Source: Candidatus Omnitrophota bacterium (GTDB taxonomy: Bacteria > Omnitrophota > Gorgyraeia > 2-01-FULL-45-10). Taken from it: DNA of 64,000 bases. The translations under genes were made by a program, and so were the position numbers. The notes beneath the pieces are model-generated. The model was not told the DNA's origin, made no database searches, and saw only the letters and a list, made by a program, of their open reading frames with translations. Below are positions 1,610 to 51,070 of this stretch, piece by piece. Location of the stretch: assembly GCA_041650935.1 (NCBI GenBank), contig JBAZKH010000001.1, positions 139,945 to 203,944 on the forward strand, given 5' to 3'. The number at the start of each line of letters is the position of its first letter. Within the stretch, counting starts at the first letter, position 1.

Positions 1610-3313
1610 GTGAAGATGCGAGATCCCGTTGTTCATTCCGCCTTCGCCGAGGCTTCGGCAGACAGGCGTTCATTCCGCCTTCGCCGAGGCTTCGGCGGAC
1701 AGGCGTTCATTGTTCGTAAGATACCGCTGGTTATATCCGCGGTATTTTTTTTGTTCTGCACAAAAACGTTTTGCGGTGAACCGGATAAACCTTGTTATGG
1801 CGACGCCATTGTCGTAAGTTCTATAAGCGATGCGCGTACGCTCGTCCCCATACTTGCGTCGGATTCCGCCTCATGCACTGTCTGCGACAGGCTCTTTAAC
1901 GGGATGGTCAAATACGATAAGAATGTCCGCATAACAGGAGAGCTTGCCGAGAGCTGGGAGATAACCGGCGGCGGCCTCATTATAACATTCCATTTAAAGA
2001 GGAACGTGAAGTGGCATGACGGGAAACCCTTTACGGCTAGGGACGTCCTCTTCACATATAATAAACTTATCGACCCGAAGGTTAAGACCCCTTACAGCGG
2101 TGATTTCGAGAGGATAAGGTTGCTCGAAACGGTCGACGACTATACCGTAAAAGTCACTTACAAGGAGCCTTTCGCGCCGGCCCTCTCCAGCTGGGGCATG
2201 TGGATAATGCCGGAGCATCTTTTAAAAGACGAGGACCTGAATTCGACCAAGTTTTCGCGCAACCCTGTCGGGACCGGGCCGTATAAATTTAAGTCATGGA
2301 GGACGGGCGAGAAGATCGAACTCGTTTCGAACCGCGACTATTTCGAAGGCAGGCCATGTATAGACCGGTATATATATCGCATAATACCCGACGATGCCAC
2401 CATTTTTCTTGAACTTGAGACCCGGGGCGTCGACCTCTCGACGCTTTCGCCGCTTGAGTATACGCGGCAGACCGATAATAAATTCTTCCGCACGTATTAC
2501 AATAAGTTCAGGTATCCGAGTTTCGGTTACAACTTTATGGCATATAACCTGTCGGATCCGAAGTTCCGCGACCTGAAGGTAAGGGAGGCGATAAATTACG
2601 CGGTAAACAGAGAAGATATAGTCAGGACGATATTCTTCGGTCTTGCGGAAGCGACAACAGGGCCTTTTATGAAAGAGTCGTGGGCTTACAATAGAGATGT
2701 TATGCCTGCCGCCTACGATCCCGGACGCGCTAAAGCGCTCCTGGGTGAAGCGGGGTGGCGGGATACCAATGGCGACGGGTGGCTGGAGAAGGATGGAGTG
2801 AAATTCGAGTTTACGGTTCTTGTTAATCAGGGGAACGGCGAGCGTCTGCGCTCGGCCGAGATGATCCAGAAGTACCTTGAGGACGTTGGGATAAAAGTGA
2901 AGATACGGATCGTGGAGTGGAGTACCATGATAAGCGAGTTTCTCGATAAGCGCAGGTTCGAGGCCGTCATAATGGGGTGGTTCCTGCCCCGCGATCCGGA
3001 TTGCTACGATATATGGCATTCGTCTAAGACGCGGGAGGGCGAATTCAACTTTGCGGGGTATAAGAATGAGGAAGTCGACAGGCTTCTGGTGGAGGGAAGG
3101 CGCATCTTCGACGAGGCGCAGCGCGCCGGGATATACCGCCGGATACACTCACTTATCTACGCCGACCAGCCGTACCTGTTCCTGTATACATCGGATATCC
3201 TGCCGATCGTGAGTTCGCGTTTCCGCAATGTCAAGACCTCGGCGATCGGCATCGGGTATAACTTTATCGAGTGGTACGCGCCGCGGGATGAGCAGCGGTA
3301 CAGGGAGAAGTAA
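1610..3313 (+). CDS. ABC transporter substrate-binding protein (family 5, oligopeptide/dipeptide-like)
   Basis: 567 aa with an SBP_bac_5-like pattern (signal-like hydrophobic stretch, ...GTGPYKF..., ...WLPRDPDCYD...). The start is uncertain (GTG 1610 or ATG 1616). The first ~34 codons run through a 37-bp tandem repeat. Confidence 0.8.
   Translation: MKMRDPVVHSAFAEASADRRSFRLRRGFGGQAFIVRKIPLVISAVFFLFCTKTFCGEPDKPCYGDAIVVSSISDARTLVPILASDSASCTVCDRLFNGMVKYDKNVRITGELAESWEITGGGLIITFHLKRNVKWHDGKPFTARDVLFTYNKLIDPKVKTPYSGDFERIRLLETVDDYTVKVTYKEPFAPALSSWGMWIMPEHLLKDEDLNSTKFSRNPVGTGPYKFKSWRTGEKIELVSNRDYFEGRPCIDRYIYRIIPDDATIFLELETRGVDLSTLSPLEYTRQTDNKFFRTYYNKFRYPSFGYNFMAYNLSDPKFRDLKVREAINYAVNREDIVRTIFFGLAEATTGPFMKESWAYNRDVMPAAYDPGRAKALLGEAGWRDTNGDGWLEKDGVKFEFTVLVNQGNGERLRSAEMIQKYLEDVGIKVKIRIVEWSTMISEFLDKRRFEAVIMGWFLPRDPDCYDIWHSSKTREGEFNFAGYKNEEVDRLLVEGRRIFDEAQRAGIYRRIHSLIYADQPYLFLYTSDILPIVSSRFRNVKTSAIGIGYNFIEWYAPRDEQRYREK
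1631..1711 (+). repeat. 37-bp tandem direct repeat (2.2 copies) GTTCATTCCGCCTTCGCCGAGGCTTCGGC(A/G)GACAGGC
   Basis: Directly visible: unit at 1631-1667 and again at 1668-1704, then a partial copy. Two reading frames stay open through it. Confidence 0.85.
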
Positions 3314-3318
3314 AATCT

Positions 3319-3338
3319 GTTTCCACCCCGGGGTGGAA
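3319..3338 (+). terminator. GC palindrome TTTCCACCCCGGGGTGGAA after the SBP gene
   Basis: Perfect inverted repeat CCACCCCGGGGTGG. The same 16-mer TTTCCACCCCGGGGTG recurs at 13419. Confidence 0.5.
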
Positions 3339-3387
3339 TACCAAAGCGACCGAGGACATGACCCATAGATTTATAGAGTAAAATTAT

Positions 3388-12068: not shown

Positions 12069-12803
12069 ATGCGCAATATAAAACTCACGATACGATACGA
12101 CGGTACGCGGTATGCCGGCTGGCAGTCGCAGACAAACGGCCTTGCCATACAGGATGTTATTCAGGATACCATTAAAAAGATAACCGGTGAGCGCGTTACT
12201 GTGATAGGCTCCGGCAGGACAGATGCTGGGGTCCACGCCGAAGCCCAGGTTGCCAATTTTAAGACCAGGACAAAGATACCGCTTAAAAATATACAGATGG
12301 CCCTCAATAGCAGGCTGCCCAGGGATATCGCTATAACATATATAGAGGAAGCTGACCCGAAGTTTAACGCTCAGAAGAGCGCGAAGTCAAAGCTTTACAG
12401 GTATACGATACTGAATAATGACTATATGGACCCCCTCAGGAGGTATTTTACCGCAAAGTGTTTCTTTAAGCTGAACGTGAATTCGATGCGGAAGGCCGCC
12501 GGATACCTTGAAGGCCGGCACGATTTCAGGTCGTTTCAGACCACTGACGGAAGAGAGAAGAACTCTGTCCGGACGATAAAGTCTATCGATATCCGGAAGG
12601 ACGGGAATATTATATGCGTTTACATAGAAGCCAACGGGTTTTTATACAATATGGCAAGGAATATTGTGGGCACTCTTGTCGAGGTCGGCCGCGGAAGATT
12701 TACGCCGATGCTTGTGAAAGATATCATAGCAAAACGTGACAGGAGTTCTTCCGGCCCGACGATGCCGGCGAAAGGGCTTTGCATGGTCAAGGTGCGGTAT
12801 TAA
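12069..12803 (+). CDS. truA: tRNA pseudouridine(38-40) synthase
   Basis: IKLTIRYDGTRYAGWQSQ and GSGRTDAGVHA (catalytic Asp) motifs. Confidence 0.9.
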   Translation: MRNIKLTIRYDGTRYAGWQSQTNGLAIQDVIQDTIKKITGERVTVIGSGRTDAGVHAEAQVANFKTRTKIPLKNIQMALNSRLPRDIAITYIEEADPKFNAQKSAKSKLYRYTILNNDYMDPLRRYFTAKCFFKLNVNSMRKAAGYLEGRHDFRSFQTTDGREKNSVRTIKSIDIRKDGNIICVYIEANGFLYNMARNIVGTLVEVGRGRFTPMLVKDIIAKRDRSSSGPTMPAKGLCMVKVRY

Positions 12804-12804
12804 T

Positions 12805-13416
12805 ATGAAGAAGAGATATACGACGATCGCATTCGACCTGGGCAATACCGTTATCAGGTTCGACCACAATATCTCGGCGCGTAAGATAGCCAACCTCTTC
12901 AATATCGATTCCAGGAAGATATATGATACTTTTTTTGATTCGGAAGTAACGAGGGCATTCGATAGGGGGCGGTTGTCATCCAGGCAGTTTCACAAAGAAG
13001 CGACGCGGGTGCTGGGCATAGTGCTTCCATATATGGACTTCGCGAAAATCTGGAGCGAGATATTCTGGGCAGATGAGAAAGTCTGCGGCCTTGTGCGGGA
13101 GCTTAAAAGCTTGAATTACCGGTTATTCCTCCTCTCCAATATAAACCGCATCCATTTCGAATATATCGAAAAACGGTTCGACATCATCAAGGCCTTCGAC
13201 GAACTAATCCTTTCCTATATGGTCGGCGCTATAAAGCCCGAGCCTTTGATATACGAGGATGTCATAAGAAGGGCCGGCGGCAACAGGCAGGATATCCTTT
13301 ATATCGACGACAGGGAGGATCTTATAAAGGAAGCAACCGCGATGGGTATCGATTCGATCCGGTTTGAAGATTTTGATCTCTTAAAACAAGAGATGGCGCA
13401 TAGAGACATCCTGTGA
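12805..13416 (+). CDS. HAD-superfamily hydrolase (subfamily IA-like)
   Basis: Motif I FDLGNTV, motif IV-like DDREDL. Start taken at ATG 12805, just after the truA stop. Confidence 0.7.
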   Translation: MKKRYTTIAFDLGNTVIRFDHNISARKIANLFNIDSRKIYDTFFDSEVTRAFDRGRLSSRQFHKEATRVLGIVLPYMDFAKIWSEIFWADEKVCGLVRELKSLNYRLFLLSNINRIHFEYIEKRFDIIKAFDELILSYMVGAIKPEPLIYEDVIRRAGGNRQDILYIDDREDLIKEATAMGIDSIRFEDFDLLKQEMAHRDIL

Positions 13417-13470: not shown

Positions 13471-13498
13471 TTGACAAATCTTTCCTGTGTGGTAAACT
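13471..13498 (+). promoter_or_regulatory. sigma70-like promoter TTGACA-N16-TAAACT for the giant ORF
   Basis: TTGACA at 13471-13476 and TAAACT at 13493-13498, about 170 nt upstream of the SD AGGAGG and ATG 13671. Confidence 0.5.
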
Positions 13499-13670
13499 AC
13501 ACACAAGTTGTTTTATCCGCCTTCGCTAACTGACTTAAAATAACGGAAAGCTTCGGCGGACACTTTAATACAGAATGTAACAGCGAACGCTTGGCAAAAT
13601 TGCCGGGCGTTTTTTATTTTTATAAAAGAGTTTAATAAGTCGAAATACTACAAAACAGGAGGAGCTATAA

Positions 13671-16600
13671 ATGAAGAATAAGATATTAATAAAATCTTTG
13701 AGTATAGTCGTTTTATGCGCATTTCTATTTAACGATCTCGCCTATGGCCTGAGTCCTATAGTCGTGTCGGGCCCCGATGGTGGAGGCTCCGGCACCAGAG
13801 ATGACATGTACGCCCTCGGCAAGAAGTTATTTGCCGCGAAGTGGCTCGGTCCCGGCTCAATCGGTGCGATGGACATGTCCCGTGTTGGTATCCCGAAATT
13901 TCGCGGAACCGCCCCGAAGATAAAGAACGTCTCAAATTTCCGCAGGGTGACTTACCGGGAAGACATGGAATTTCCCGCCGGCTGGTCAAATAACAAAGTG
14001 AATAGGGAGTTGCTAAAGTCTCGGGACCTCATCTCTGCCCTCAGATGTTTCAGGAAGAATGAAGCCGCAATATCGGGTGAATTCCTATCTATCGAAGAAG
14101 GGTATTTTGAACCGGAGCGGAAGGGTGAACTGCCGATAGCCAGGACGGAAATACTTGATAACGGCATGCTTAAGCTCATCGTACATACGGAATTTGTCCA
14201 GATGTGGGACGATCTGCTGGCCCGCGATATATGGTTCGATCACACCTTCCCGGACGGTAAGACCAGGACCGTGAGCGCTGCGTGGGCGCTATTTTACCGC
14301 CTGGCCAAGCACGAGATGGCGGATAGGGTTAAGGTAGGAGCGTATCATAAAGGCGGAGGGCACATATCAAGCTTTTCTTTCGGGAGCATTCCCGAAATAT
14401 TCAGCAATGAGTTTTCGGCAAACGAGATCGGCGGGCGATATAATATCATAAACGACGCTATATGGCTCTGGTATCTGGGCTCTTATTCCTATACCAACAA
14501 GACGAGATACAATAATAGAACCGCGAAGGCGAGGTACAACTGGATATTTAACGGTAAGAAGGCTAAGGAGCTTGAGCTCGACCAGGAATTTCCCAATCTT
14601 CGCGGCGGCGAAAACAAGGCAAATAGGGAATTTGCCATCAAGCTGGCCCTGAATATAAATAAGACGTGTTTTGAAAAAGGTAGAATAGTGTGGGAGACCG
14701 TAGTCGATCAAAAATTCATCGATGCCTACGAACGGCGACGACAGAGGATTTATTCTGTCCTACCCGCTACCGGCCGCGACGATGATCGAAAGCCGCGCGC
14801 GCATGACCGTTGGGCCAGGGGTGAGGCCGGGCCGGCTAAGAAAGATCTTGCCGCGGCCAGCGTCGACGATATCACGGCGCTTCTAAGGAAGTATGGCCTT
14901 AAGCCGGCTACTATATCCGAACGCGAATGGATAGCTAGTGTCGCGTCGATGCTGTGTGTGGAAGCAGGCTTTTCGAAGATTGCCCCGCTGGTGAATAAAC
15001 TGTGCTTAGTGCAGGACCTCGGGCGTTATATCGAGGATACAGAACCGGAACTTTACGGGCGGGTAAAGGCAGCTTTTAAAAAGCATGGGCTGGAGACTAC
15101 CGCGGATGCGCTTATAGATGCCGCGAAAGAAGCCGGTTTTACCGATATGATGGATTTCGCAAGAAATGTTATAGGCGGCGAGATAGAGTGGAATCCAAAG
15201 ACCGAAGAAGCCGCCCGCGGATTGGCCGATCATGAAAATAGGACCTTGGAATTACTGGAAGATGAGGGTTATTCTATAGGGCAGTTCGAAGTAAACCTCA
15301 TACCTGCGCACCATGATTTTTCCAAGCTATCTACCGAAACTACGCCGGTAAAGCGGGCTATTACGGCGGCTATCCGGCTGGCGCTTATACTCAATTATTC
15401 TAACAGGAATAAAGGCGATTCGATGGAAGCGGTAGAGAGTTTTATGGTTAGCAGGATTAACACGGAAGGTATGGCCGGGTATGGTATAGATGCGATGCAG
15501 AACTACCGCAGGCTGCTTGCAGCGGAAGGCGGCCAGCTTTTAGCGAGAATAAGAGAAGCGCGGGCGGCATATTCCGCCGATTCTGTCATAAGAGAAGGTG
15601 ATGCGGAATTTTTGGCATCTCTGCAGGGACGATTAATGTCCGGCGAACCACCTGTTGCCGGTGCAGGGTCGGACGGATCTGTTATTGAAGGCAAACTCAC
15701 TATAGGTGACCTTAATAGAGCGGTCATAAGAGAGATAAATAGTGATTCCGGCATAACAGTATCGGATGCAGAAGGATATATAGAATTATGGGGAAACTTT
15801 ATTGCGGAGCACGCCGCGGAGAACACGACTGTTAATATCTCGGATATCGAGAACATTCTTGCCAGTAAGGGCGAAGAGACTATTGGCTGGCGCGAAAGTA
15901 TAAGAGCATTAATAACTCCTTTATCTGTTGGGATAGGTATTGTATGGGGCTATACAGGCTTTTGGTATATAGCGGCAATGCATTATGTCGCAGGGGCAGT
16001 ATTTTTTGGCGATTTTATATATAACAATTTCATAAAAGGGAAGGATGAAAAAGAGGGTTTTGCGGCTCTGGCAGGATACCTCAGGAAGGCCAAGTTGGGC
16101 GTGCCGGGCCAGGCAGTGACTTTCTTCGCGATAGGAACCCCATCCGTTACGCCGAAAGCAACCCTGGCGAATCTGACCATAGATGCCCTTACCGGAGAAA
16201 TTACAAAAGCGCTGAAACATGACTTTAGCCTGACAATTTGGGATAGATTTAGATATGGGGAGTTGTGGGGCAAAGTCATTGAAAAGTATGGAGAAAATGC
16301 GGCCATTAGTATTTCAAATATAGAGAAGGGCCTTATTAATAAGAGAAGCCGGCTCATCGGATGGTGCGGTGCAGGAATAGCTGCAGGCTGTGTATTTGGC
16401 GCTGCAGGCGTCCTTTGCGGTATCGCCGTTCCTTGGGCAACGGCATTATTTGATTTAATTACAGTATATTATTCGATAGAGGGTATCTTTGGGCTTGTCG
16501 GCACTAGACAGCAAGACTTAGCTGCGCTGGCAGGCTACCTTAAAAAAATTGAGTATGAGTTGAGGAGCCAAGAGGCAGGAGAGGCAGTGGAAACGCCTGC

Positions 16601-19600
16601 TCAACCACAGCGTGATGACAAACACAGCCCTGGCGAGCCGCCGACGGCGGGATCGATCGACGGAGTAAAGCCGTCCGACCTTGCCATACATCCGATGCTG
16701 AATGCGCTTATTAATAAATATTTGCAAGGCGGGAATGGAAATGCTTGCGTATCAGAAGATATAAAGACCCCGTTTTTTGACAAACTTTACTTGCTGGGAG
16801 ACGCTAATGATTTTACGTTCCGGGATATTTTCGACAAGCTTGTCAACCGGGAAATGCGAGAGCAGCATATGAACCGGCCGGATGCGGAAGCCGCATTGGT
16901 CATACAGCTTGTAAACCACTACAGAAGCTATGCCCATATTAACAGGCATATGGTCGAAGCGTTCAAGAACCAGCTTGCCCAGCAGGTCGAGCATTTCGGC
17001 GTCTACCATAACGGCGCCATATACGTTATGCGCGGGCTTATAGGAAGTAAAGATGAGATAATACAGCATGCGGTCCTGGAGTGCCGTATCCATAGAGAAT
17101 GCGCTGAAAGCCTGGATTATAACGGTCAAGGCGCGGAATCGGCCTACCGGTCGTGGAGAGATCCAATAGACAGCCGGGAGATGGACGTAAATGTCGCTAT
17201 TCCCGAACACGGCATTAATATAAGAGGGCGAATGACGTATAAGCGGTTTGTCGACCTGGCTTATGACGCCGCGGAGAAAGCGTATCCTCTATCGAGCCTG
17301 ATCCCAAAAAATAAACGGCATAAGCTGGGCGACCTGAGCTATGCCCTGCCCGGTGAACCACCTGTTGCCGGTGTAGGGTCGGACGGCGCCGGCGCTGAAA
17401 GTAAACTTACCATAGACGACCTTACTAGGGCGGTTATACGCAGTATAAATGATGACCCCAGCCTGACGGAATCAGTTATAGAGGGATATGTAGACTTGTG
17501 GAACGATTTTATTCAAGAGCGTCCTGAGGATAATGCGACCGTTAATATCTCGGATATCAAGAAGGCTCTTGCCGAGAAGAACGAACAGCTTACTCCTTTG
17601 GCCGGGGTTGTTATAGAAGCGACTACGGCCGCTATATTTTTTGCCGTAGGTGTCATATGGAGCATCACGGGCCCTTGGTATGTGGCGGCAATATATTATG
17701 CCATAAGTACAGGATTTCTTGCCGATTCCATAAATAATTATCTTTCTCATCATAAACAAAAAGACTTCATGGCGCTGGCAGGCTACCTTAAAAAAATTGA
17801 GTATGAGTTGAGGAGCCAAGAGGCAGGAGAGGCAGTGGAAACGCCTGCTCGGATGCCCGAAGAAACCGACCGGCGGATAAAGCGCGGTAAGTCCCCGGAT
17901 TGGGCGCTCACTGTAATTGCGCTCTCCGGCCTGGAAGAAATTACGATAAAAGATTATTTGGATCAATTTGACTGGGCGATAGAAGAGTATCCGGAGTTTG
18001 ACCTTGACGTCCGCGCCGAAAAGAAGCCGGAATCTACCGCAAGGAGAGACCTTTACCTAAACCCCCGTTCGTTGGAAATAATGGGTATCATCGAACCCGC
18101 AAGCCGTCTTCCGGGCTCGAGGGAATATAGGTGGCGATTGACGGAAAAAGGAAGACGCCTGGCAGAGCTTACCGTCCGGATGAGGAAAAAGATCGAGGAA
18201 GCCTGGCAGATAGTCCCGTCCGGCATACGATGTGATGGAACTACGAGCGAAGAGCTGATTATTGTGGAGGACGATAAAAAAGTTTTAGAGAGCGAACTTA
18301 AAAGCCTGCTTAGATTAAATGGCCGTGACCTTGCGCAAAAATTAGCGGCGGCAAGGTTGGAAGATAGATGTGAAATCGATGACATTCTCAGAGATTTAAG
18401 TGGTAATGCCCGCGTCTCGGAAAAACTGCGTACTTGTATAGAAGATGCGAAGGCCGCGGCGGCGGAGTTTAACAAAGTAACGTCGATGCTGGAACCGCGG
18501 AAAGCCGGCGTGAAGCGCCGTGAGCCGCCTACGATGCAGGAAAAACTTGAGCCGGAGGAGTTTTTTGCGCAAAATAGGACTAAAAATGCAGAGCCCATTA
18601 AGCCGATGAGCAGCCTGCCATATAGTCACGATGACAACATAAGGTTTATGTCCCAAACAGGAAAAGAACGACAGCTTGCGCCCCAAAACTCTGCCGAACC
18701 TGCGCGTATAAGCGTGGGCGGGTCGGAGAAAACCGAAGCCATATCCGTTCCATCATTGGCCGATATCCGCAATATTAGCAGTGCTTTTGCTGCAAGATTA
18801 CCAAGTAATTTTCCGGATTCTTTTAGAACAAGACGCGATCTTCGATTGTGGATGCTCAACGATATCCAATCTTTAAGAGCGCAGTTTTTAGAAAATATGG
18901 CAAGAGCAGGGGGCTATAAAAAGACAGATGTGATGTATCCGCAATATTCAGGCTGGGCTATTGAATGTGATAATAAACGATCTGAAGCTGAAAGGGTATA
19001 TGGAATACTATTCGGCGAAGGGGAAGCGAAACCGGCCCGGCCGCGCGACAACGCCCGCTTTGATTACAAATCTCCCGGCAGTCCGGCGCATTACCTGCTT
19101 TATATAGGGTTATATCCACCCATTCCCACGGGATGGAAGCCTCGGACATTAACCAGCGCCCACTTTTCGCAGATGGGGAAGATCAGTGACAGGACATTGC
19201 GGCGGGACAGAAAGTTTTTAGAAGATATTGGGTATCTGGACATAGAAAAGCCTACCTGGCTTACGGAGAAGGGTTACGCGGAAGCATGTGATTTTGCAGG
19301 CAGGCTGAAAACATTAGCCGCGCAGGTTAAGCCCGGTTACTCTGGGGATAGCCGTCTACTTGTACAGGATTTGATAAAAGAAGCAAATCCCCAAATACTT
19401 TCCGAAATCAAGAAGATGAACGACAAACTTCGGGCGGAAGCAAAATCAGTCCGGTTGAGCAAAGCTGACCAACGGAAAAGACTCGCTGCCATACTATCCG
19501 CAGCGAAGATAAAAGATCTGACCGCCCGCGTCACAGCATTAATATACTTACGGGACAATCTGCCCCGGGAGACTAAAAGAGAAGACGAAAAACTGAAGCG

Positions 19601-22600
19601 GTCCATTGTCGAAATAGCCGGTCAGAATGATAACCTGGCCGCCCGCGTCACAGCGTTGGCATACTTAAGAGATGTTCTGCCGTCAAGGACCGAGATCGAG
19701 TCCGAAAAGCTGTGGCAGTCCATCTGTGCAATAGCGACTCAGAAAAAAGATCTCACAGCCCGCGTCATGGCGTTGATATATATGAGGGATGAGTATGATC
19801 CCGACATTGACGCTGATAAACGCCAGGAAAAGCTCTGGAACTCTATCGGTAAAATAGCACGCCAGAAAAAAGACCTCACAGCCCGCGTCACAGCGCTTAT
19901 GTTTTTAAAAAGTCCAGACAGATGGGTACAACATGAATTCTCGCGGCTAGCACCGGATGGTGAACTTTTATATTTTTATCGTGATAGTGATAGGCGAAGA
20001 GCTAGCCCTATCCGTGAGATAGCTAACCAGGATAAAGACCTCACAGCCCGCGTTGCGGCGTTGATATGTCTGAGGAATGGAGGAGATTATAACTGTGAAG
20101 AACTCTGGCAGTCTATCCGTAGAATAGCCCACCAAAAGAGAGACCCTGTAGCCCGTGTCACAGCGTTGATATATATGAGAGATAATACACCGGAAATTGC
20201 CGGGGATGAACGCGAGCGCTTATTGCAAAGAATTCAAGGTAAAGAACCGGCCTCTGTATCCGTGCCTCGATTCGATTGGGTGGATACGTTAAGTCGCGCC
20301 GAAAGGAAGGAGATAGTAGACAATCTTGCACTTACAGATGAGCAAATAGCCGATAGAACCATCTTAAGGGCGGCTATTGCAGCGGTGACTGCGAATACAG
20401 AACAAGATAAAAAACAGGCAATGATTGTGCTCGCATGCCGTTTCCAGGAATTAGATGGCGATGGCTCGTACGCCGCCGCAGAACGCGCAGAACAGTCAAT
20501 AAAAGATATTCGCCGCGAAATAGATAACAAGGGAGAGATCGACCGGCGCACGGAATCCGGCAAGGGACAGGCAGCGGAAACACCTGCCCGGCCGCGCGAT
20601 GGAAATGACCGTTCTTGGAATGGCCATATAACGGAAGGCGATATAAGGATGCACGCGGATGTGGGTAATTCGGAAGATATTAACTGGCTTGTTGATGCCA
20701 GCGCTAACCAGCCCGATATGGTGGAGAAAATACTCACTGAGCCTAAATACGCCGCTGTACGCAAGCAGTATAAAGTGGCGCTAGCGAAATTACCATCAAT
20801 GCAATGGGGGATAAAAGATTTTACTAGTATGGCGCAATTCCTAGGAAAACATGCGGCTTCTTTTAAGAAACAGGTTGGTGGGTTCCATTTTTACATAGGA
20901 GTACCGGAACACTCGGATCAGCGTTCACTTAAAACATCTTTCATTTCTTATAACGCCAATTTTGGGAAAGGAATGAGCTATACTTTCCGAAAAGAACCGT
21001 CCGGAGAGATTTCGTTGATAGTCAATCGTGCTATATGTGATGGCATGGGGGAATCACATATTTTTACAATAAATGAAAACATGATACGAGAGGAATACGG
21101 ATCCAGGGCAGAGGTTATAGAAAATGGCTTGATAAAGGGATTTGTGTCCAAAGATGGGTGTTTGTATGTTCTTGTTAGTCATGCTGGGAAGGAATTTGCA
21201 AAAAATTATATACCTGAATTTGACCCTGAATATAAGTTTGTGTCTTTTGTCGAATCAATGCCCGGTACAGTAGTGACGACGCCGGTACTGGAGACGGATG
21301 TAGCGAAAACTGCGCAAGCTGCGACAGGTGTGTCAGCGGATGCGCAAGAAGTAACGCAACCAGAAGCAGAAGATCTCGAGAACCTCCATTATTATTGGCT
21401 TGCATTGGGAGCCGCCCAGCGAGAAGCAATAATTGAAAATATCGCTGAAGTTACTCTCAGAAGAGTGTCCTATGCCGATACTGATTTGTTGTACAGTGTA
21501 GCGGCAAGGGTAGGAGCCAAGATGCCGAACGAAATTAATCAGGCTATGGCAATGATTGTCAGATGTTTTAAATCGAGAGGAAAAGATGACACGGCCGCTC
21601 AAAAAACAGCGGAAGAGCTGGTGGAACTTGTCAACACGGCCTTAAATGCCATTAAGACACTCCCCGAACAAAGAATAAGGTTTCAATCTGCATTAGATGG
21701 AGCACGTAATAGGCTAACTGCAGAACAAATGGGTGTGAGATTCCCTGTTGCGCAACCCGCGGTAAATGAAAAACCCCAGGCCGCGGCAATATCAGATACT
21801 GCGACAGAATTGGTCGAGTTGATGGCAAAGAGAGATGCTTTGCCGGAGAGCGCCGACCTGCTTGTGGTCTTTGGCAGTCCGGATGCCGAAATGGTCGCGG
21901 CGGAAGCGGCTAAAATGTATCGTGAGCGTAAGATATCGCGTATATTGGTTTCCGGGAAATACGGAAAACATTGCACCCCGTGTGCGGATAACGGTGACTT
22001 TGGACGTGATAAGGATGGTAACATCGTCAGGGCGGAGGCATTAATAATGAGAGATGCTATTATTGCCGCCGGAGTGCCGGAGTCATCGATCCTGGTTGAA
22101 AAAGAATCCCAGGGGATGACCGATAACGGAGTATTTTCCGTGAATAAATTAATAGAGGCGAATATTGTGCCCAAAACGGTCATTTTTATGCATGCGCCCC
22201 TTATGCAGTTAAGAGGCTCGTTGGCTCTTCGCAATGCCTTGGCGCAAAATAAGATAGAAGCCGCGGTATACGATTATGCGGCGTCTATTCCCGTAAACCC
22301 TTCCGAAAAATTAAGCGCTATTATTTGGCAGGCAGGCCGGCTGGATATTGAAATCGAGCCGATCGTCGGCAAAGAGAGATATGCTCAAATAATACTTCTG
22401 CTGGAGAGCCTGAGGATGCCTGAAAAGAGCGCGGGGGAGCAGTCCGCGACTGGAATGAATATGCCGGTTGCAAACGAAGTCAATGTGGCCGAAGCGAAAC
22501 CGGCCCAGCCTGCGGTGCGCGCGGGCGGCAGGGCAAATAATTTAATCGAAATATCCGAATTAAATCAACATATCGTAGAATTGGAAGCGATGGCTTCCAG

Positions 22601-23828
22601 AGGGAAGTATGTTGCAGATGAACTTGCGGTTGCTCATGAACGGCTTTTAGCGCTTGCGAAAGCTGCAGCGGTCAATGCGCAAGAAGTAACACAACCCGCC
22701 GCGCAGGAAGCCGAAAACGCATCGGTTGCGCAGCCCACTTTAGAAGAGCTCACGGTGGAGATGTCCAGTGGAGCCACTGCGGTTGACTGGATGCCGGTGT
22801 GGGAAAACGTACTGCAAATGGTTTTAAGCAAAAAAGTGTACGGTTCTGCCGTAACAATAAGAGAATATATGGAGTGTAATGATGTTGATCGCGAAACGAC
22901 TGTTACTGCACTTTCTGAACTTGTTAGGCAAGGTTATTTAGTGCGATCTAATATTATAAGGTGGAGTTACGATCTTACGCCAAAAGCTGCCGTTGAAATA
23001 TTATGTGCACAAGCAATAGCTGAACAAGGGCTGGATACGGACGAATTCTGGAGCGCCCGCGCCGCGGCTATAAAAGATACGAAGAATAGAGCCATCATTA
23101 AGGCGATATCGGATTTCACCGCTCGGCAAGGTCCGAATGCGGGCCCGGGCGCTATGATCCCGCTTTCGAAGACGACGACGCTCAGCATCTGGCAGATAGT
23201 AAACCTGGCCCATCAAAACAGGATAGAGATCTTCCGGCCCCAGGAGGACGGCCGTTCCGCCGGCATGAAGAAGGCCCTTGATACTATCGAAAAGCGGAGA
23301 GGGGATATCATAAGCGATAGATTCTACACCGGGAATAATCTCGAGGCGATGCTTAGGGACCCGGCCAAAAAGGGCACATTAAGGATAGTACTCACCACAA
23401 ACGCGGAATCGAAGAGACTTGTGGAAGCCCTGTCCAGGAAAGATGTTACGCTATTTAAGTCTACGCGGCTATTGAATCTGACGCTTCCCAGGGAGTACAG
23501 CGCATATCTTCCGAACTCTAAGGAGAGGACGTACTACCAGGCGAAGATGATATTCGAAGCCATACTGGCGCGGTTATATGAAAAGGGCAAGACGCCTATG
23601 GTCGAGCTTATCATGAGGAGCGTCTTCGAAGGCCGCATAGATGGCGGTATGGATAAATTCCTGGAGACATTGGCCGAGGCCGAAGACGAAAAGGATAATC
23701 CCGACCCGGAGAAGATAAAGATAAGGATCGAAAACTGTCTTAACATAATCGTGAGGCTTTCCGAGGAAGTGGCCAGGTCGATCGAGCATTTGAAGTTGAT
23801 CATGAAGGAGTTCTGGACAGCGGCGTAA
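13671..23828 (+). CDS. giant secreted/membrane multidomain protein (3385 aa) of unknown function
   Basis: Single uninterrupted ORF with SD AGGAGG 8 nt upstream. N-terminal signal peptide. Two paralogous modules with hydrophobic helices, ~7 HEAT-like repeats, a DUF218/YdcF-like domain, winged-helix-like segments. No recognisable enzymatic core over most of its length. Confidence 0.85.
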   Translation: MKNKILIKSLSIVVLCAFLFNDLAYGLSPIVVSGPDGGGSGTRDDMYALGKKLFAAKWLGPGSIGAMDMSRVGIPKFRGTAPKIKNVSNFRRVTYREDMEFPAGWSNNKVNRELLKSRDLISALRCFRKNEAAISGEFLSIEEGYFEPERKGELPIARTEILDNGMLKLIVHTEFVQMWDDLLARDIWFDHTFPDGKTRTVSAAWALFYRLAKHEMADRVKVGAYHKGGGHISSFSFGSIPEIFSNEFSANEIGGRYNIINDAIWLWYLGSYSYTNKTRYNNRTAKARYNWIFNGKKAKELELDQEFPNLRGGENKANREFAIKLALNINKTCFEKGRIVWETVVDQKFIDAYERRRQRIYSVLPATGRDDDRKPRAHDRWARGEAGPAKKDLAAASVDDITALLRKYGLKPATISEREWIASVASMLCVEAGFSKIAPLVNKLCLVQDLGRYIEDTEPELYGRVKAAFKKHGLETTADALIDAAKEAGFTDMMDFARNVIGGEIEWNPKTEEAARGLADHENRTLELLEDEGYSIGQFEVNLIPAHHDFSKLSTETTPVKRAITAAIRLALILNYSNRNKGDSMEAVESFMVSRINTEGMAGYGIDAMQNYRRLLAAEGGQLLARIREARAAYSADSVIREGDAEFLASLQGRLMSGEPPVAGAGSDGSVIEGKLTIGDLNRAVIREINSDSGITVSDAEGYIELWGNFIAEHAAENTTVNISDIENILASKGEETIGWRESIRALITPLSVGIGIVWGYTGFWYIAAMHYVAGAVFFGDFIYNNFIKGKDEKEGFAALAGYLRKAKLGVPGQAVTFFAIGTPSVTPKATLANLTIDALTGEITKALKHDFSLTIWDRFRYGELWGKVIEKYGENAAISISNIEKGLINKRSRLIGWCGAGIAAGCVFGAAGVLCGIAVPWATALFDLITVYYSIEGIFGLVGTRQQDLAALAGYLKKIEYELRSQEAGEAVETPAQPQRDDKHSPGEPPTAGSIDGVKPSDLAIHPMLNALINKYLQGGNGNACVSEDIKTPFFDKLYLLGDANDFTFRDIFDKLVNREMREQHMNRPDAEAALVIQLVNHYRSYAHINRHMVEAFKNQLAQQVEHFGVYHNGAIYVMRGLIGSKDEIIQHAVLECRIHRECAESLDYNGQGAESAYRSWRDPIDSREMDVNVAIPEHGINIRGRMTYKRFVDLAYDAAEKAYPLSSLIPKNKRHKLGDLSYALPGEPPVAGVGSDGAGAESKLTIDDLTRAVIRSINDDPSLTESVIEGYVDLWNDFIQERPEDNATVNISDIKKALAEKNEQLTPLAGVVIEATTAAIFFAVGVIWSITGPWYVAAIYYAISTGFLADSINNYLSHHKQKDFMALAGYLKKIEYELRSQEAGEAVETPARMPEETDRRIKRGKSPDWALTVIALSGLEEITIKDYLDQFDWAIEEYPEFDLDVRAEKKPESTARRDLYLNPRSLEIMGIIEPASRLPGSREYRWRLTEKGRRLAELTVRMRKKIEEAWQIVPSGIRCDGTTSEELIIVEDDKKVLESELKSLLRLNGRDLAQKLAAARLEDRCEIDDILRDLSGNARVSEKLRTCIEDAKAAAAEFNKVTSMLEPRKAGVKRREPPTMQEKLEPEEFFAQNRTKNAEPIKPMSSLPYSHDDNIRFMSQTGKERQLAPQNSAEPARISVGGSEKTEAISVPSLADIRNISSAFAARLPSNFPDSFRTRRDLRLWMLNDIQSLRAQFLENMARAGGYKKTDVMYPQYSGWAIECDNKRSEAERVYGILFGEGEAKPARPRDNARFDYKSPGSPAHYLLYIGLYPPIPTGWKPRTLTSAHFSQMGKISDRTLRRDRKFLEDIGYLDIEKPTWLTEKGYAEACDFAGRLKTLAAQVKPGYSGDSRLLVQDLIKEANPQILSEIKKMNDKLRAEAKSVRLSKADQRKRLAAILSAAKIKDLTARVTALIYLRDNLPRETKREDEKLKRSIVEIAGQNDNLAARVTALAYLRDVLPSRTEIESEKLWQSICAIATQKKDLTARVMALIYMRDEYDPDIDADKRQEKLWNSIGKIARQKKDLTARVTALMFLKSPDRWVQHEFSRLAPDGELLYFYRDSDRRRASPIREIANQDKDLTARVAALICLRNGGDYNCEELWQSIRRIAHQKRDPVARVTALIYMRDNTPEIAGDERERLLQRIQGKEPASVSVPRFDWVDTLSRAERKEIVDNLALTDEQIADRTILRAAIAAVTANTEQDKKQAMIVLACRFQELDGDGSYAAAERAEQSIKDIRREIDNKGEIDRRTESGKGQAAETPARPRDGNDRSWNGHITEGDIRMHADVGNSEDINWLVDASANQPDMVEKILTEPKYAAVRKQYKVALAKLPSMQWGIKDFTSMAQFLGKHAASFKKQVGGFHFYIGVPEHSDQRSLKTSFISYNANFGKGMSYTFRKEPSGEISLIVNRAICDGMGESHIFTINENMIREEYGSRAEVIENGLIKGFVSKDGCLYVLVSHAGKEFAKNYIPEFDPEYKFVSFVESMPGTVVTTPVLETDVAKTAQAATGVSADAQEVTQPEAEDLENLHYYWLALGAAQREAIIENIAEVTLRRVSYADTDLLYSVAARVGAKMPNEINQAMAMIVRCFKSRGKDDTAAQKTAEELVELVNTALNAIKTLPEQRIRFQSALDGARNRLTAEQMGVRFPVAQPAVNEKPQAAAISDTATELVELMAKRDALPESADLLVVFGSPDAEMVAAEAAKMYRERKISRILVSGKYGKHCTPCADNGDFGRDKDGNIVRAEALIMRDAIIAAGVPESSILVEKESQGMTDNGVFSVNKLIEANIVPKTVIFMHAPLMQLRGSLALRNALAQNKIEAAVYDYAASIPVNPSEKLSAIIWQAGRLDIEIEPIVGKERYAQIILLLESLRMPEKSAGEQSATGMNMPVANEVNVAEAKPAQPAVRAGGRANNLIEISELNQHIVELEAMASRGKYVADELAVAHERLLALAKAAAVNAQEVTQPAAQEAENASVAQPTLEELTVEMSSGATAVDWMPVWENVLQMVLSKKVYGSAVTIREYMECNDVDRETTVTALSELVRQGYLVRSNIIRWSYDLTPKAAVEILCAQAIAEQGLDTDEFWSARAAAIKDTKNRAIIKAISDFTARQGPNAGPGAMIPLSKTTTLSIWQIVNLAHQNRIEIFRPQEDGRSAGMKKALDTIEKRRGDIISDRFYTGNNLEAMLRDPAKKGTLRIVLTTNAESKRLVEALSRKDVTLFKSTRLLNLTLPREYSAYLPNSKERTYYQAKMIFEAILARLYEKGKTPMVELIMRSVFEGRIDGGMDKFLETLAEAEDEKDNPDPEKIKIRIENCLNIIVRLSEEVARSIEHLKLIMKEFWTAA
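19480..20200 (+). other. array of ~7 degenerate 36-45-aa alpha-helical repeats, HEAT-like/PBS-lyase-like, inside the giant ORF
   Basis: Recurrent ...EKLWQSI..IA.QKKDLTARVTAL[IM]YLRD... in the translation. Confidence 0.55.
21860..22330 (+). other. DUF218 (YdcF/SanA/ElyC-like) domain embedded in the giant ORF
   Basis: LLVVFGSPDAEM...AAKMYRERKISRILVSGKYG...AEALIMRDAIIAAGVPESSILVEKESQGMTDNGVFS...KTVIFMHAPLMQLRG follows the DUF218 spacing (VLG...SGG...EA..M..GVP...E..S.nT.eN...H..R). Confidence 0.55.
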
Positions 23829-23839
23829 AAAATATTATA

Positions 23840-23868
23840 TTGACAAGACAGGGGTGATATGATAATAT
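23840..23868 (+). promoter_or_regulatory. consensus sigma70 promoter TTGACA-N17-TAATAT upstream of rplM
   Basis: TTGACA at 23840-23845, a 17-nt spacer, and TAATAT at 23863-23868. Confidence 0.65.
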
Positions 23869-23903
23869 CAATCGCCTCTGCGAAAAGAGGTATTTTTTTA
23901 TCT

Positions 23904-50670: not shown

Positions 50671-50765
50671 CAAAACCCAAATGACAAATAAATCTTTAAA
50701 TGACCAACATTAAAATATTTGGTTTTAAATGATTGGTTTGGATTTTGAAATTTGTCGTTTATGAT
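50655..50765 (+). repeat. AT-rich palindromic element, family A copy 4 (contains the cutA stop; abuts tRNA-Ala)
   Basis: AATGTCGAATGACAAAACCCAAATGACAAATAAATCTTTAAATGA...TTTAAATGATTGGTTTGGATTTTGAAATTTGTCG. Confidence 0.7.
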
Positions 50766-50772
50766 GTTCTTA

Positions 50773-50848
50773 GGGGCAGTAGCTCAGCTGGGAGAGCACC
50801 ACGTTCGCAACGTGGGGGTCGTGGGTTCGAATCCCATCTGCTCCACCA
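50773..50848 (+). tRNA. tRNA-Ala (anticodon CGC)
   Basis: Cloverleaf GGGGCAG/CTGCTCC acceptor stem with G3:U70. D-arm GCTC...GAGC. Anticodon stem CCACG/CGTGG with loop TTCGCAA. T-arm GTGGG TTCGAAT CCCAT. Encoded CCA. Confidence 0.9.
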
Positions 50849-51070
50849 TGTACCACTCGCAACAACTGGCTATAGATATTGCTCGGGTACATGGCGCAGC
50901 CATGTACCATATGCAGTCGCAGCGTGTAGTGATACATGCCCTGTACCTGAAAAATGCCGAAGGCATTTTGAATGGTATAGGGCCCTAAACCATTCACTGC
51001 GTTCAGGTTTGGGGCACAGCAAACACTCGGGTTTTGCCTAGCGCCCGAGCGGCAGTATTAGCGTTGGTGA

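Follow-up and report, generated by a model that had tools for sequence, protein, structure and literature searches.

The Giant Gene and Its Expression Signals

The window analyzed here is a 64,000-nucleotide stretch of a Candidatus Omnitrophota genome and contains no N bases. As the first-pass annotation had stated, its longest ORF (13671-23828, + strand) is a single uninterrupted ATG-to-TAA frame of 10.2 kb, encoding 3385 aa. An identical protein is present in NCBI, JGI, and ENA, on a 710-kb contig; the NCBI entry, MFA5142675.1, is annotated as hypothetical and derives from a Candidatus Omnitrophota MAG, in agreement with the Omnitrophota-type source suggested earlier. The ORF is real, uninterrupted, and coding. 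Codon-usage likelihood, scored in 22 windows of 450 nt, prefers the annotated frame in 21; the sole exception is aa 1651-1800, where coding signal is absent in all frames. The conserved end domains described below lie exactly at both ends of the ORF, as they do in 69 other complete family members, which argues that it is complete and free of frameshifts.

A strong Shine-Dalgarno (SD) sequence, AGGAGG (13657-13662, +), had been noted previously and is read directly 8 nt upstream of the ATG. The gene had also been credited with a near-consensus promoter of its own, and here the picture is mixed. The best sigma-70-like match is a candidate at 13471-13498 (+), with TTGACA, a 16-nt spacer, and a TG-extended TAAACT. 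However, promoter-like sites around the gene start are not in excess (18 observed vs. 16.8 in shuffles), and a strong terminator-like hairpin with a T-run (13585-13622, +; hairpin 13585-13612, 12 bp with 6 GC pairs, fold z = -2.2) sits between the candidate promoter and the ATG. Given both observations, an own promoter is best described as plausible. The hairpin may act as an attenuating leader or mark where a small RNA of ~115 nt ends; the 5′ leader matched no Rfam family. Downstream, a hairpin and T-run at 23874-23900 (+), 46 nt past the stop codon, form a candidate terminator of the giant gene. This hairpin also overlaps the SD-like AAGAGG of rplM.

A Protein Family Defined by Its Two Ends

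The giant protein belongs to an undescribed, fast-evolving head-and-tail family of Omnitrophota. The head comprises the first 374 aa and the tail the last 269 aa, and this pair defines a family of 184 cluster representatives, recovered among 1.84 billion by an N-domain profile search. The first-pass annotation had recommended searching metagenomes for orthologs and conserved neighbors; relatives were found, with head and tail conserved, while no partner gene is kept across loci. The recurrent neighbors are only housekeeping genes, at one orthologous position. In a search with the whole protein, all 14 other matches (14/14) were confined to aa 1-374 and 3117-3385, with identities of 25-45%. The N-domain begins within the first 40 residues in nearly all strong full-length matches, and the N-domain, the C-domain, and a terminal F-W-x-x-A occur together in 70 fetched members. 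These form a continuous size series of complete proteins, from 591 aa, where the two domains are adjacent, to 5171 aa, which is also the longest N-domain match among the 150 matches listed; the middle thus varies from 0 to ~4500 aa. The same head-middle-tail layout is seen in complete ORFs at 33 further metagenome loci. All taxonomically labeled family loci come from an Omnitrophota MAG or from a MAG labeled uncultured Planctomycetia, and viral contigs yielded no family members. Profile searches of 5.8 billion proteins returned one fragment for the C-domain and nothing for module B (described below), but are uninformative because they also missed known members.

The head opens with a segment (aa 1-26; 13671-13748, +) that resembles a signal peptide, as the first-pass annotation had proposed: a lysine-rich start, a hydrophobic core of 12 residues, and the cleavage-type motif A-Y-G before L-S-P, with MKNKILIKSLSIVVLCAFLFNDLAYG standing ahead of LSP. 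Across the family, a hydrophobic N-terminal segment is present in 60 of 67 complete members and the motif A-x-[GAS]-L-[SGA] in 59 of 67. The ~600 aa after the signal peptide had been called unrecognizable, yet a conserved 350-aa N-domain opens this stretch (aa 27-374; 13749-14792, +), with a family profile match of E = 2e-137 across aa 1-374. It ends in L-P-A-T-G. The family consensus of this closing motif is [LIVM]-[YP]-A-[TAG]-G, most commonly L-Y-A-T-G; at aa 364-368 it lies ~3000 aa from the C-terminus of the giant protein, which therefore does not class as an LPXTG sortase substrate, a type in which the motif stands close to the C-terminus and a hydrophobic segment and basic tail come after it.

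In the 103 N-domains compared, H214 is invariant (103), and H231 (101), D186 (101), E215 (93), S202, and E247 are nearly so, as is the acidic position 218 (D or E in 94). The giant protein carries H214, E215, D218, and H231. In the structural model the order is strand, backing helix, two strands, and a helix bearing K-H-E-M-A-D. The N-domain weakly resembles minimal zincin metallopeptidases, whose fold combines a mixed sheet, a backing helix, and an active-site helix. The motif H214-E-M-A-D218 reads HExxD and fails the zincin HExxH pattern; position 218 is D in 85 N-domains, E in 9, and H in only one (P0077). This departure, together with the substitution of E215 in 10% of family members, speaks against zincin-type activity. 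Nor did loss of E215 follow loss of the FW terminus in any clear pattern, a point against the mechanism proposed below. Foldseek of the N-domain against the PDB gave no match, scanning all 15 N-domains with Pfam returned isolated, scattered hits only, and PDB sequence profile searches with the N-domain, the C-domain, and module B yielded one match, a chance hit to a designed protein.

The tail, or C-domain (aa 3117-3385; 23019-23825, +; profile E = 5e-86), contains a G-P-G motif, a flavodoxin-like alpha/beta core, and a helical tail with terminal F-W-T-A-A, so that the chain ends KEFWTAA. In the family this domain always closes with F-W-x-x-A. Its modeled fold is generic flavodoxin-like, and both end domains are modeled as mixed alpha/beta folds.

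Composition of the Insert

The 2.7 kaa between head and tail (aa 375-3116; 14793-23018, +) is a lineage-specific insert. Its base composition is distinct: GC3 is 0.42-0.57 in the insert, 0.58 in the N-domain, and 0.665 in the C-domain, against 0.633 ± 0.039 for 24 further genes in the window, placing the insert more than 3 SD under the neighboring genes and the two ends near or within their range. Similarity between the insert and other family members is confined to aa 643-1475 and 1781-1925, and some 1.7 kaa of its roughly 2743 aa is orphan sequence with homologs found nowhere. The earlier statement that the protein is mostly without recognizable homology was thus borne out. Of the Pfam searches it had advised, whole-protein scans (with NCBIfam included) gave nothing significant, and a piecewise scan placed DUF218 alone above threshold. 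The orphan sequence and the 150-aa stretch lacking coding signal suggest that the insert may in part be tolerated filler and not functional cargo.

The recognizable portion begins with module A, described in the first-pass annotation as two paralogous ~330-aa modules with hydrophobic segments. Paralogy and hydrophobicity stand, but the unit measures ~170 aa and is present in three copies, with the paralogous stretches at aa 661-831, 835-984, and 1231-1401. As modules, copies 1 and 2 (aa 656-831 and 832-984; 15636-16622, +), delimited by DNA repeats and protein self-matches, each have a ~45-aa hydrophobic hairpin (aa 742-785 in copy 1, aa 893-945 in copy 2) together with the tail ALAGYLKK; copy 3 (aa 1229-1401; 17355-17873, +) has its hairpin at aa 1306-1346. 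Module A also occurs in the family members P0019, P0020, P0021 (three copies), P0033, P0053, P0150, and P0153. Between copies 2 and 3 lies module B (aa 985-1228; 16623-17354, +), with invariant H, Q-x-x-H, Y, H-x3-E-x3-H, and Y-x-x-W-R; it is present in eight other members, twice in P0004, and matched nothing in PDB or Pfam.

Several winged-helix-like segments had been proposed, and the matches are indeed all to winged-helix families, but every one is sub-threshold (E about 0.01-0.2). The first module (aa 1402-1530; 17874-18260, +) is shared with P0004 (aa 741-859), and matches HxlR at E = 0.16, the homologous P0004 segment matching EarA at E = 0.15. The second (aa 1781-1925; 19011-19445, +) is shared with P0128 and P0028 (HTH_11, E = 0.1-0.2). 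The third, a segment at ~aa 3058-3100 (22842-22970, +), resembles MarR_2 (E = 0.037), DUF5817_CT (E = 0.0095), and GntR (E = 0.2).

About seven HEAT-like repeats had been counted. Repeats are present at 19446-20243 (+), but six of 35-55 aa each are clear by DNA (repeat families D1 and D3) and protein self-matching, and no HEAT model matched them, the sole match being IBN_N at 28.9 bits. Their consensus is K-L-W-x-S-I-x-x-I-A-x-Q-x-K-D-L-T-A-R-V-T-A-L-I-Y-L-R-D, in which we take D-L-T-A-R-V-x-A-L to resemble HEAT_PBS repeats. The DUF218/YdcF-like domain named by the first-pass annotation was confirmed (aa 2723-2874; 21837-22292, +): with aa 2600-3000 scanned alone, PF02698 scores 32.1 bits against a Pfam gathering cut-off of 27.6 (E = 1.2e-7), and E. 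coli YdcF (3ca8) aligns to the segment at E = 0.013. SanA- and ElyC-type DUF218 domains are periplasmic. No other head-and-tail family member was seen with a DUF218 domain.

Turnover of the Insert Among Relatives

Cassettes turn over between close relatives. P0029 and P0042 share 78% identity in the N-domain and 68% in the C-domain, yet are 1624 vs. 834 aa long; P0012 and P0032 are 62-84% identical at the ends and ~17% in the middle; P0016 and P0017 are mosaics in which modules at 58-74% identity alternate with indels hundreds of aa in length. By N-domain, the nearest relatives of the giant protein (59, 57, and 50% identity) have nothing in common with it past aa 374. The same turnover is seen at an orthologous position: between alr and ilvD in related genomes, the family gene encodes 671, 1728, 1838, at least 1730, at least 2243, or at least 2429 aa. 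The family also evolves fast relative to its neighbors at this locus, where alr is 69-77% and ilvD 83-90% identical between genomes, whereas N-domains of the most divergent genomes (L009, L021, and L025) are only ~40-45% identical. The giant gene is large because material accreted at one permissive site, rather than because it encodes a long adhesin.

In many relatives the middle contains captured domains, including NAD synthase, NAPRTase, enolase, kinases, and sigma-factor domains. In P0011, a single chain joins NAD synthase (225 bits) to a CN_hydrolase domain and parts of NAPRTase. Other captures are partial or disordered, such as Enolase_C before Enolase_N in P0002 and an isochorismatase domain present only in part in P0011. 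Enzymes of this kind are normally cytoplasmic, which is odd for an exported protein and counts against the export reading. The motifs EPPxAG, PARPRD...KSPGSP, and the one closing the N-domain were considered as general cleavage or junction marks and rejected; they are enriched, but specific to a module or to the N-domain end.

Proposed Mechanism and Alternative Readings

We propose, with moderate confidence, that the giant gene encodes a Sec-exported, membrane-tethered protein with a ~600-aa head-tail core and swappable cassettes at a permissive linker. The family core would be a two-domain unit of signal peptide, N-domain, and flavodoxin-like C-domain. The conserved His/Glu/Asp/His cluster on a zincin-like scaffold would make the N-domain a putative metal-dependent hydrolase, and the free C-terminus F-W-x-x-A of the C-domain would be fixed in register. 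Lineages would gain, lose, and swap cassettes, either family-specific modules or captured enzyme domains, at the linker between the two domains. The load accreted by the giant gene would then consist of three hydrophobic-hairpin modules, the His/Glu-rich module B, winged-helix-like modules, HEAT-like repeats, DUF218, and orphan sequence. Judging from sequence features, export and membrane tethering are likely; export would proceed via Sec with cleavage after A-Y-G, and the three hairpins would tether the chain to the membrane, with all soluble parts on the outer side. Head and tail may act as a single unit presenting the insert at the cell envelope. In the simplest version, the C-terminal carboxylate tail would occupy the cleft of the N-domain, in the manner of minimal zincin zymogens.

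Conserved ends around a cassette-like middle could also describe a polyprotein or effector carrier similar to MARTX or polymorphic toxins, in which the ends direct export and translocation, the N-domain acts as a protease that cuts the chain, and a host or prey cell receives the freed cassettes, so that enzymes of cytoplasmic type would be active there. We regard this as unlikely, although several observations are consistent with it. The N-domain is zincin-like, relatives such as P0011 contain intact-looking cytoplasmic enzymes, the hydrophobic hairpins could enter a target membrane, the family is fast-evolving relative to its neighbors, and Omnitrophota are thought to be host-dependent (PMC10066038). 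However, there is no general cleavage motif at module borders, EPPxAG and PARPRD being module-bound, and no cysteine protease domain, RTX repeats, or nearby partner secretion genes were found. Minimal members exist without any cargo, captured domains are partly incomplete or out of order (P0002, P0011), and the giant protein itself has no recognizable effector enzyme. A more elaborate form of the head-tail core reading seems to us distinctly unlikely. It would make the family an evolvable display or delivery platform of host-dependent Omnitrophota in which a head-tail lock, with the C-terminal carboxylate tail seated in a zincin-like cleft, holds a recombining cargo loop, and captured enzymes or pathways (NAD salvage in P0011) are exported and either shown to a partner cell or released into it under diversifying selection.

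If the N-terminal helix were instead an uncleaved anchor, the modules could act inside the cell, as a cytoplasmic scaffold or regulator. HTH-like segments in the giant protein and the sigma-70, RNAP alpha CTD, kinase, and metabolic enzyme domains of its relatives would suit such a role, and nearly half of Omnitrophota proteins of at least 10 kaa are predicted to have TM segments, no signal peptide, and a cytoplasmic bulk (10.64898/2026.06.07.730766). The N-terminus makes this quite improbable: the hydrophobic core has three lysines ahead of it and an acidic stretch behind it, is only ~12 residues long, and ends in the conserved A-x-G before L-S-P, all of which fits a cleaved signal and a chain outside. 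The periplasmic location of SanA/ElyC-type DUF218 also argues against it.

The first-pass annotation had raised a role in cell-cell contact. The signal-like N-terminus, hydrophobic anchors, and fast family evolution, frequent in surface proteins, would suit a giant surface adhesin, and such a role has been proposed for larger giants (PMC10066038; 10.1101/2023.11.21.568195). The present results do not bear this out. The piecewise Pfam scan revealed no adhesin-type domain or beta-rich repeat and no Ig, cadherin, lectin, dockerin, or TSP3 domain. The end domains are mixed alpha/beta, recognizable parts of the insert are helical-repeat or HTH-like, and 591-aa members exist without an insert. Pilus, type II secretion, and glycoside hydrolase genes are reported around giants of at least 80 kaa (10.64898/2026.06.07.730766), but none was found among 20 scanned ORFs of the window. 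An adhesin is thus hard to credit. Least credible by far is an artefactual origin, whether through a chimeric assembly, collapse of a repeat, or decay of a gene whose frame is accidental. The MAG origin, the internal repeats (98 nt, 93% identical; 242 nt, 72% identical), the one 450-nt window without coding signal, and the deviating insert GC3 might suggest it, but a 3385-codon open frame is impossible by chance at 49% GC, and the frame preference is nearly uniform. In addition, head and tail occupy the very termini, as they do in 69 other complete members assembled independently, other members contain modules A and B as well, and the internal repeats have diverged and are short.

Omnitrophota are marked by large, unannotated proteins targeted to the membrane, which have so far been treated as poorly conserved one-offs. 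The head-and-tail family offers a handle on them, with a recognizable end-domain pair, a defined insertion site, and a size series from 0.6 to 5.2 kaa; combined with positional orthologs that differ only in the insert, these features make growth of such proteins testable by comparative genomics. Small members (591-850 aa) provide expressible and solvable alternatives to intractable giants. Should the core turn out to be a metallohydrolase that is exported and either presents cassettes or releases them, it would bear on the dealings of ultra-small bacteria with their hosts.

Comparison With Known Systems

The described Omnitrophota giants share with the giant protein the phylum, a signal or TM segments, and mostly unannotated, poorly conserved sequence (10.1101/2023.11.21.568195; 10.64898/2026.06.07.730766). 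The giant protein is 10-40 times smaller, the SecA_DEAD, C39/S8 peptidase, dockerin, and TSP3 domains of the described giants were not found in it, nor were type II secretion, pilus, or GH2 genes found near its gene, and the sections consulted of those papers do not describe a conserved head-and-tail pair. The individual classes do not accommodate it either. Archaeovorin-type genes exceed 90 kb (>30,000 aa) and encode numerous TM helices and a SecA DEAD-like domain with GT, GH, methyltransferase, NUDIX, and peptidase domains (West-Roberts et al., 2023, 10.1101/2023.11.21.568195), whereas here the gene is 10.2 kb, encoding 3385 aa, with a signal-like peptide, three hydrophobic hairpins, and only DUF218 above threshold. 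The Dockerin-type Omnitrophota giant has multiple dockerin and TSP3 repeats (10.1101/2023.11.21.568195), and PF00404 and PF18884 were unmatched in our protein in whole and piecewise Pfam scans. "Multi-enzyme metabolic clusters" have at least 10,000 aa tiled by distinct Pfam enzyme domains (Nielsen and Lui, 2026, 10.64898/2026.06.07.730766). Relatives of the giant protein likewise string metabolic enzymes together, but the protein itself has 3385 aa and one Pfam domain, and enzyme-tiling relatives (P0011) also remain below 10 kaa.

MARTX and polymorphic toxins (PMC3482391) likewise have conserved flanking or leading parts, swappable cassettes, and a possible metallopeptidase-like processing domain. 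Unlike in those systems, no RTX repeats, cysteine protease domain, Rhs or filamentous hemagglutinin repeats, or immunity gene was found, and polymorphic toxins vary at the C-terminal end, whereas the head-and-tail family varies internally and its C-terminus is most rigidly conserved. Assignment to MARTX proper would call for a cysteine protease domain and, at each end, glycine-rich RTX-type repeats; Pfam found neither, and the ends are globular. Among the closest known systems are also the minimal zincins (minigluzincins, MEROPS M95: projannalysin 4jix, proabylysin 4jiu, and selecase 4qhf), for which filling of the active site by the protein's own C-terminus is a known precedent (PMC5557861, PMC3890501). 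The DUF218 proteins YdcF, SanA, and ElyC resemble the giant protein through the PF02698 match of aa 2723-2874, but in the giant protein the domain is just one of many cassettes along a chain of 3.4 kaa.

Flagellin, with its hypervariable center and giant or enzyme-bearing forms (PMC7643111), offers a likeness of architecture only, with no relation in sequence or fold (PF00669 and PF00700 were unmatched in the giant protein). Flagellin ends are coiled-coil D0/D1, whereas those of the head-and-tail family are globular alpha/beta domains whose co-folding is only inferred. Flagellin uses the flagellar apparatus, while the family apparently has a Sec-type signal, and nothing suggests polymerization. 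Yet both have conserved ends around one central insert-tolerant site, inserts ranging from zero to very large and including whole enzyme domains, and a fast-evolving, lineage-specific middle. Were the family to serve as a display or delivery platform, it would be a protein-level analog of the flagellin hypervariable region, used for cargo.

A family with conserved ends
Whole-sequence searching of 5.8 billion proteins with the product of the giant gene, hereafter the window protein, returned the protein itself and 14 others of 1982-5171 aa, each covering only about 10% of it and always in the same two regions, aa 1-374 (the N-domain side) and aa 3117-3385 (the C-domain). All these proteins start with a signal-like segment ending A-[YF]-[GA]|L-S-P and end with F-W-x-x-A. 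An N-domain profile recovered 184 proteins from 1.84 billion cluster representatives (124 with E<1e-30), and in nearly all strong full-length matches the N-domain begins within the first 40 residues. Members that carry both domains and the F-W-x-x-A end count as complete; 70 of the 156 sequences examined qualify, covering lengths from 591 to 5171 aa in a continuous series. The N- and C-domains abut in the 591-aa member; at about 800 aa they are separated by one module A, a hydrophobic hairpin-bearing unit. All complete ORFs in 33 further metagenome loci show the same N-domain/C-domain/F-W-x-x-A layout. The family's taxonomic range is based on 13 labelled loci from a species-level genome collection, all 13 being MAGs labelled Omnitrophota or 'uncultured Planctomycetia'; no member was located on a viral contig. 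Tandem paralogues are common, as at least three loci carry two family genes head to tail (L002 9911-15405, L037 1151-7362, L039 2-9291).

An exchangeable middle
The ends of P0029 and P0042, two family members, are 78% and 68% identical, and the proteins measure 1624 vs 834 aa; P0012 and P0032 share 62-84% identity at their ends but about 17% in between. P0016 and P0017 have a mosaic structure, with modules retaining 58-74% identity between indels that span hundreds of aa. Past aa 374, the window protein has nothing in common with its nearest N-domain relatives (59%, 57% and 50% identity). The closest of them (59%) is encoded at L018 4271-9472, and its insert, unrelated to the window protein, starts by eye with a GHMP-kinase-like G-A-G-L-S-N-S-A-A motif.

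Eight loci (L009, L010, L021, L025, L038, L040, L042 and L046) carry a family gene between alr and ilvD, in the conserved order mtnA-like, thiL-like, tsaE, tsaB-like, alr, family gene, ilvD, ilvB, ilvC. Six distinct family genes occupy this position, encoding 671, 1728, 1838, at least 1730, at least 2243 and at least 2429 aa, and flanking identity across the eight loci is 69-77% for alr and 83-90% for ilvD. Among the most divergent loci (L009, L021, L025), N-domain identity drops to about 40-45% against 70-90% for the flanks, and the family gene there thus evolves much faster than its neighbours. Base composition was also compared within the window, where 24 other genes have a GC3 of 0.633 +/- 0.039 (minimum 0.566). 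The C-domain of the window protein gene (0.665) lies inside this range and the N-domain (0.58) at its low edge; the insert (aa 375-3116; 14793-23018) has a GC3 of 0.42-0.52 in most segments, below all other window genes examined. The family's middle is an exchangeable insert.

The reading that we favour, which stands about an even chance of being right, is that the conserved 600-aa core would be the functional unit, exported and with a metal-site-like N-domain, that cassettes would accumulate and be exchanged at the inter-domain linker, a permissive site, and that the window gene would be a heavily loaded, membrane-tethered family member.

Enzymes in the inserts of relatives
The inserts of relatives contain enzymes of cytoplasmic type. 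P0011 (2432 aa) is a fusion of NAD-salvage enzymes, joining in one chain NAPRTase parts (out of order), a partial isochorismatase (PncA-like), a CN_hydrolase domain and an NAD synthase, and P0002 (2190 aa) has Enolase_C ahead of Enolase_N. P0002 additionally carries an HERGH motif within a hydrophobic region. Cargo of this type would accord with a polyprotein or an effector carrier that is cleaved by its N-domain, but general cleavage motifs are absent and cargo-free members exist, and we consider this alternative unlikely.

Conserved ends and topology
AlphaFold models of the N- and C-domains, built separately from 15-sequence alignments, have pLDDT values of 71 and 72.6, respectively, with confident cores; the modelled C-domain adopts a generic flavodoxin-/CheY-like alpha/beta fold followed by helices. 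All complete members stop exactly three residues past an invariant Trp, which points to recognition of the free C-terminus itself. Proabylysin fills its active-site cleft with its own C-terminal tail (PMC5557861), and in an M94 mini-zincin the C-terminal carboxylate is bound to the motif's first His (PMC3890501). Here the tail may likewise dock into the N-domain.

About 60 of the 67 complete members keep a signal-like N-terminus. In the window protein three lysines lead into a 12-residue hydrophobic core, which is followed by a polar N-D break and A-Y-G, with small residues at -3 and -1; a cleaved Sec signal fits these features better than an anchor. The same features count against a membrane-anchored cytoplasmic scaffold, an improbable reading. 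Further hydrophobic segments occur in only 20 of 67 members, the window protein included, whose three hydrophobic hairpins lie in its module A copies. A membrane hairpin brings the chain back to the same side, so the simplest reading of the sequence is a predicted exported protein with three membrane tethers.

Domains inside the window protein
Whole-protein Pfam and NCBIfam scans returned nothing significant. When the Pfam scan was repeated on ten overlapping pieces, DUF218 (PF02698) was placed at aa 2729-2859 (E=1.2e-7; 32.1 bits vs a cut-off of 27.6), and E. coli YdcF (3ca8) aligns to this region (E=0.013); the DUF218/YdcF-like domain called in the first-pass annotation is therefore correct. 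The two 330-aa modules described there are paralogous and hydrophobic, but they are actually three copies of about 170 aa each (module A; aa 661-831, 835-984 and 1231-1401), with a roughly 45-aa hydrophobic hairpin and a tail reading ALAGYLKK in every copy. Instead of some seven HEAT-like repeats, six units of 35-55 aa stand out clearly (DNA families D1 and D3; protein self-matches), and the repeat region matched no HEAT model in Pfam. Three proposed winged-helix-like segments gave only sub-threshold matches, although every match was to a winged-helix family. Between the conserved ends, matches to other members are confined to aa 643-1475 and 1781-1925 and consist of module A, the His/Glu-rich module B (aa 985-1228) and two HTH-like modules; orphan sequence amounts to about 1.7 kaa. 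No adhesin-type domain was found in the window protein by the piecewise Pfam scan, which makes a role as an adhesin distinctly improbable.

The giant ORF and its surroundings
As first noticed, the gene is one uninterrupted ORF on the + strand (13671-23828; ATG 13671, TAA 23826-23828; 3385 aa), the longest of the window by far, with a strong Shine-Dalgarno AGGAGG (13657-13662) 8 nt ahead of its ATG. That it is an artefact is scarcely credible. There are no N bases anywhere in the window. A codon-usage likelihood trained on 22 other window genes, applied to the ORF in 22 segments of 450 nt, prefers the annotated frame in 21 of them. The identical protein is deposited, on a 710-kb contig, as MFA5142675.1 ('MAG: hypothetical protein WC522_00720 [Candidatus Omnitrophota bacterium]'). 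The sole ORF stretch lacking codon-usage signal, with all frames checked, is aa 1651-1800 (18621-19070); it resembles a low-complexity Pro/Ser/Glu-rich linker.

The neighbours are housekeeping genes, namely leuC, leuD, leuB, asd, truA and a HAD hydrolase upstream, and rplM, rpsI, argC and argJ, then argG, argH, an aminotransferase, uvrA and a TPR protein downstream. No secretion, pilus or glycoside hydrolase genes were found among the window ORFs scanned. Within 12069-13416, the truA ORF (12069-12803) runs 68 nt into the listed ORF of the HAD hydrolase (GTG 12736), whose actual start is probably further downstream. Elsewhere, a mechanical ORF (50733-51041) is probably spurious because it overlaps a tRNA-Ala(CGC) gene (50773-50848).

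The best promoter-like site upstream of the giant gene is TTGACA-16-TAAACT (13471-13498). About 85 nt past it, upstream of the Shine-Dalgarno, lies a strong 12-bp hairpin with a T-run (13585-13622). The 13471-13622 leader, which has a fold z-score of -2.2 and matches no Rfam family, might either encode a small RNA of about 115 nt or attenuate transcription. Strong -35/-10-like boxes were also seen by eye upstream of other family genes. The gene had been credited with its own promoter; the site is indeed near-consensus, but the hairpin intervenes before the ATG, and since promoter-like matches near the gene are not commoner than in shuffled sequence, a dedicated promoter with 13471-13498 as its candidate site is only plausible. 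Another hairpin (23874-23891), followed by a T-run, lies 46 nt past the stop codon, its 3' arm containing an SD-like AAGAGG, and is preceded by a promoter-like TTGACA-17-TAATAT (23840-23868). It may be the giant gene's terminator, a translational operator of rplM, or both. Translation of rplM probably starts at ATG 23904 (MKTYIAKEKD..., resembling the L13 N-terminus), not at the listed 23859.

Comparison with known systems
Omnitrophota are noted for giant, poorly annotated, membrane-targeted proteins, and the available portions of the same reports make no mention of a conserved head-and-tail pair in these giants (PMC10066038; 10.1101/2023.11.21.568195; 10.64898/2026.06.07.730766). By their criteria, the window protein falls outside the Archaeovorin and Dockerin types and the multi-enzyme clusters of at least 10 kaa. 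The family belongs to none of the flagellins, MARTX toxins or polymorphic toxins; its closest analogue in architecture is flagellin, with a hypervariable central region, and its closest analogues in possible function are the MARTX and polymorphic toxins.
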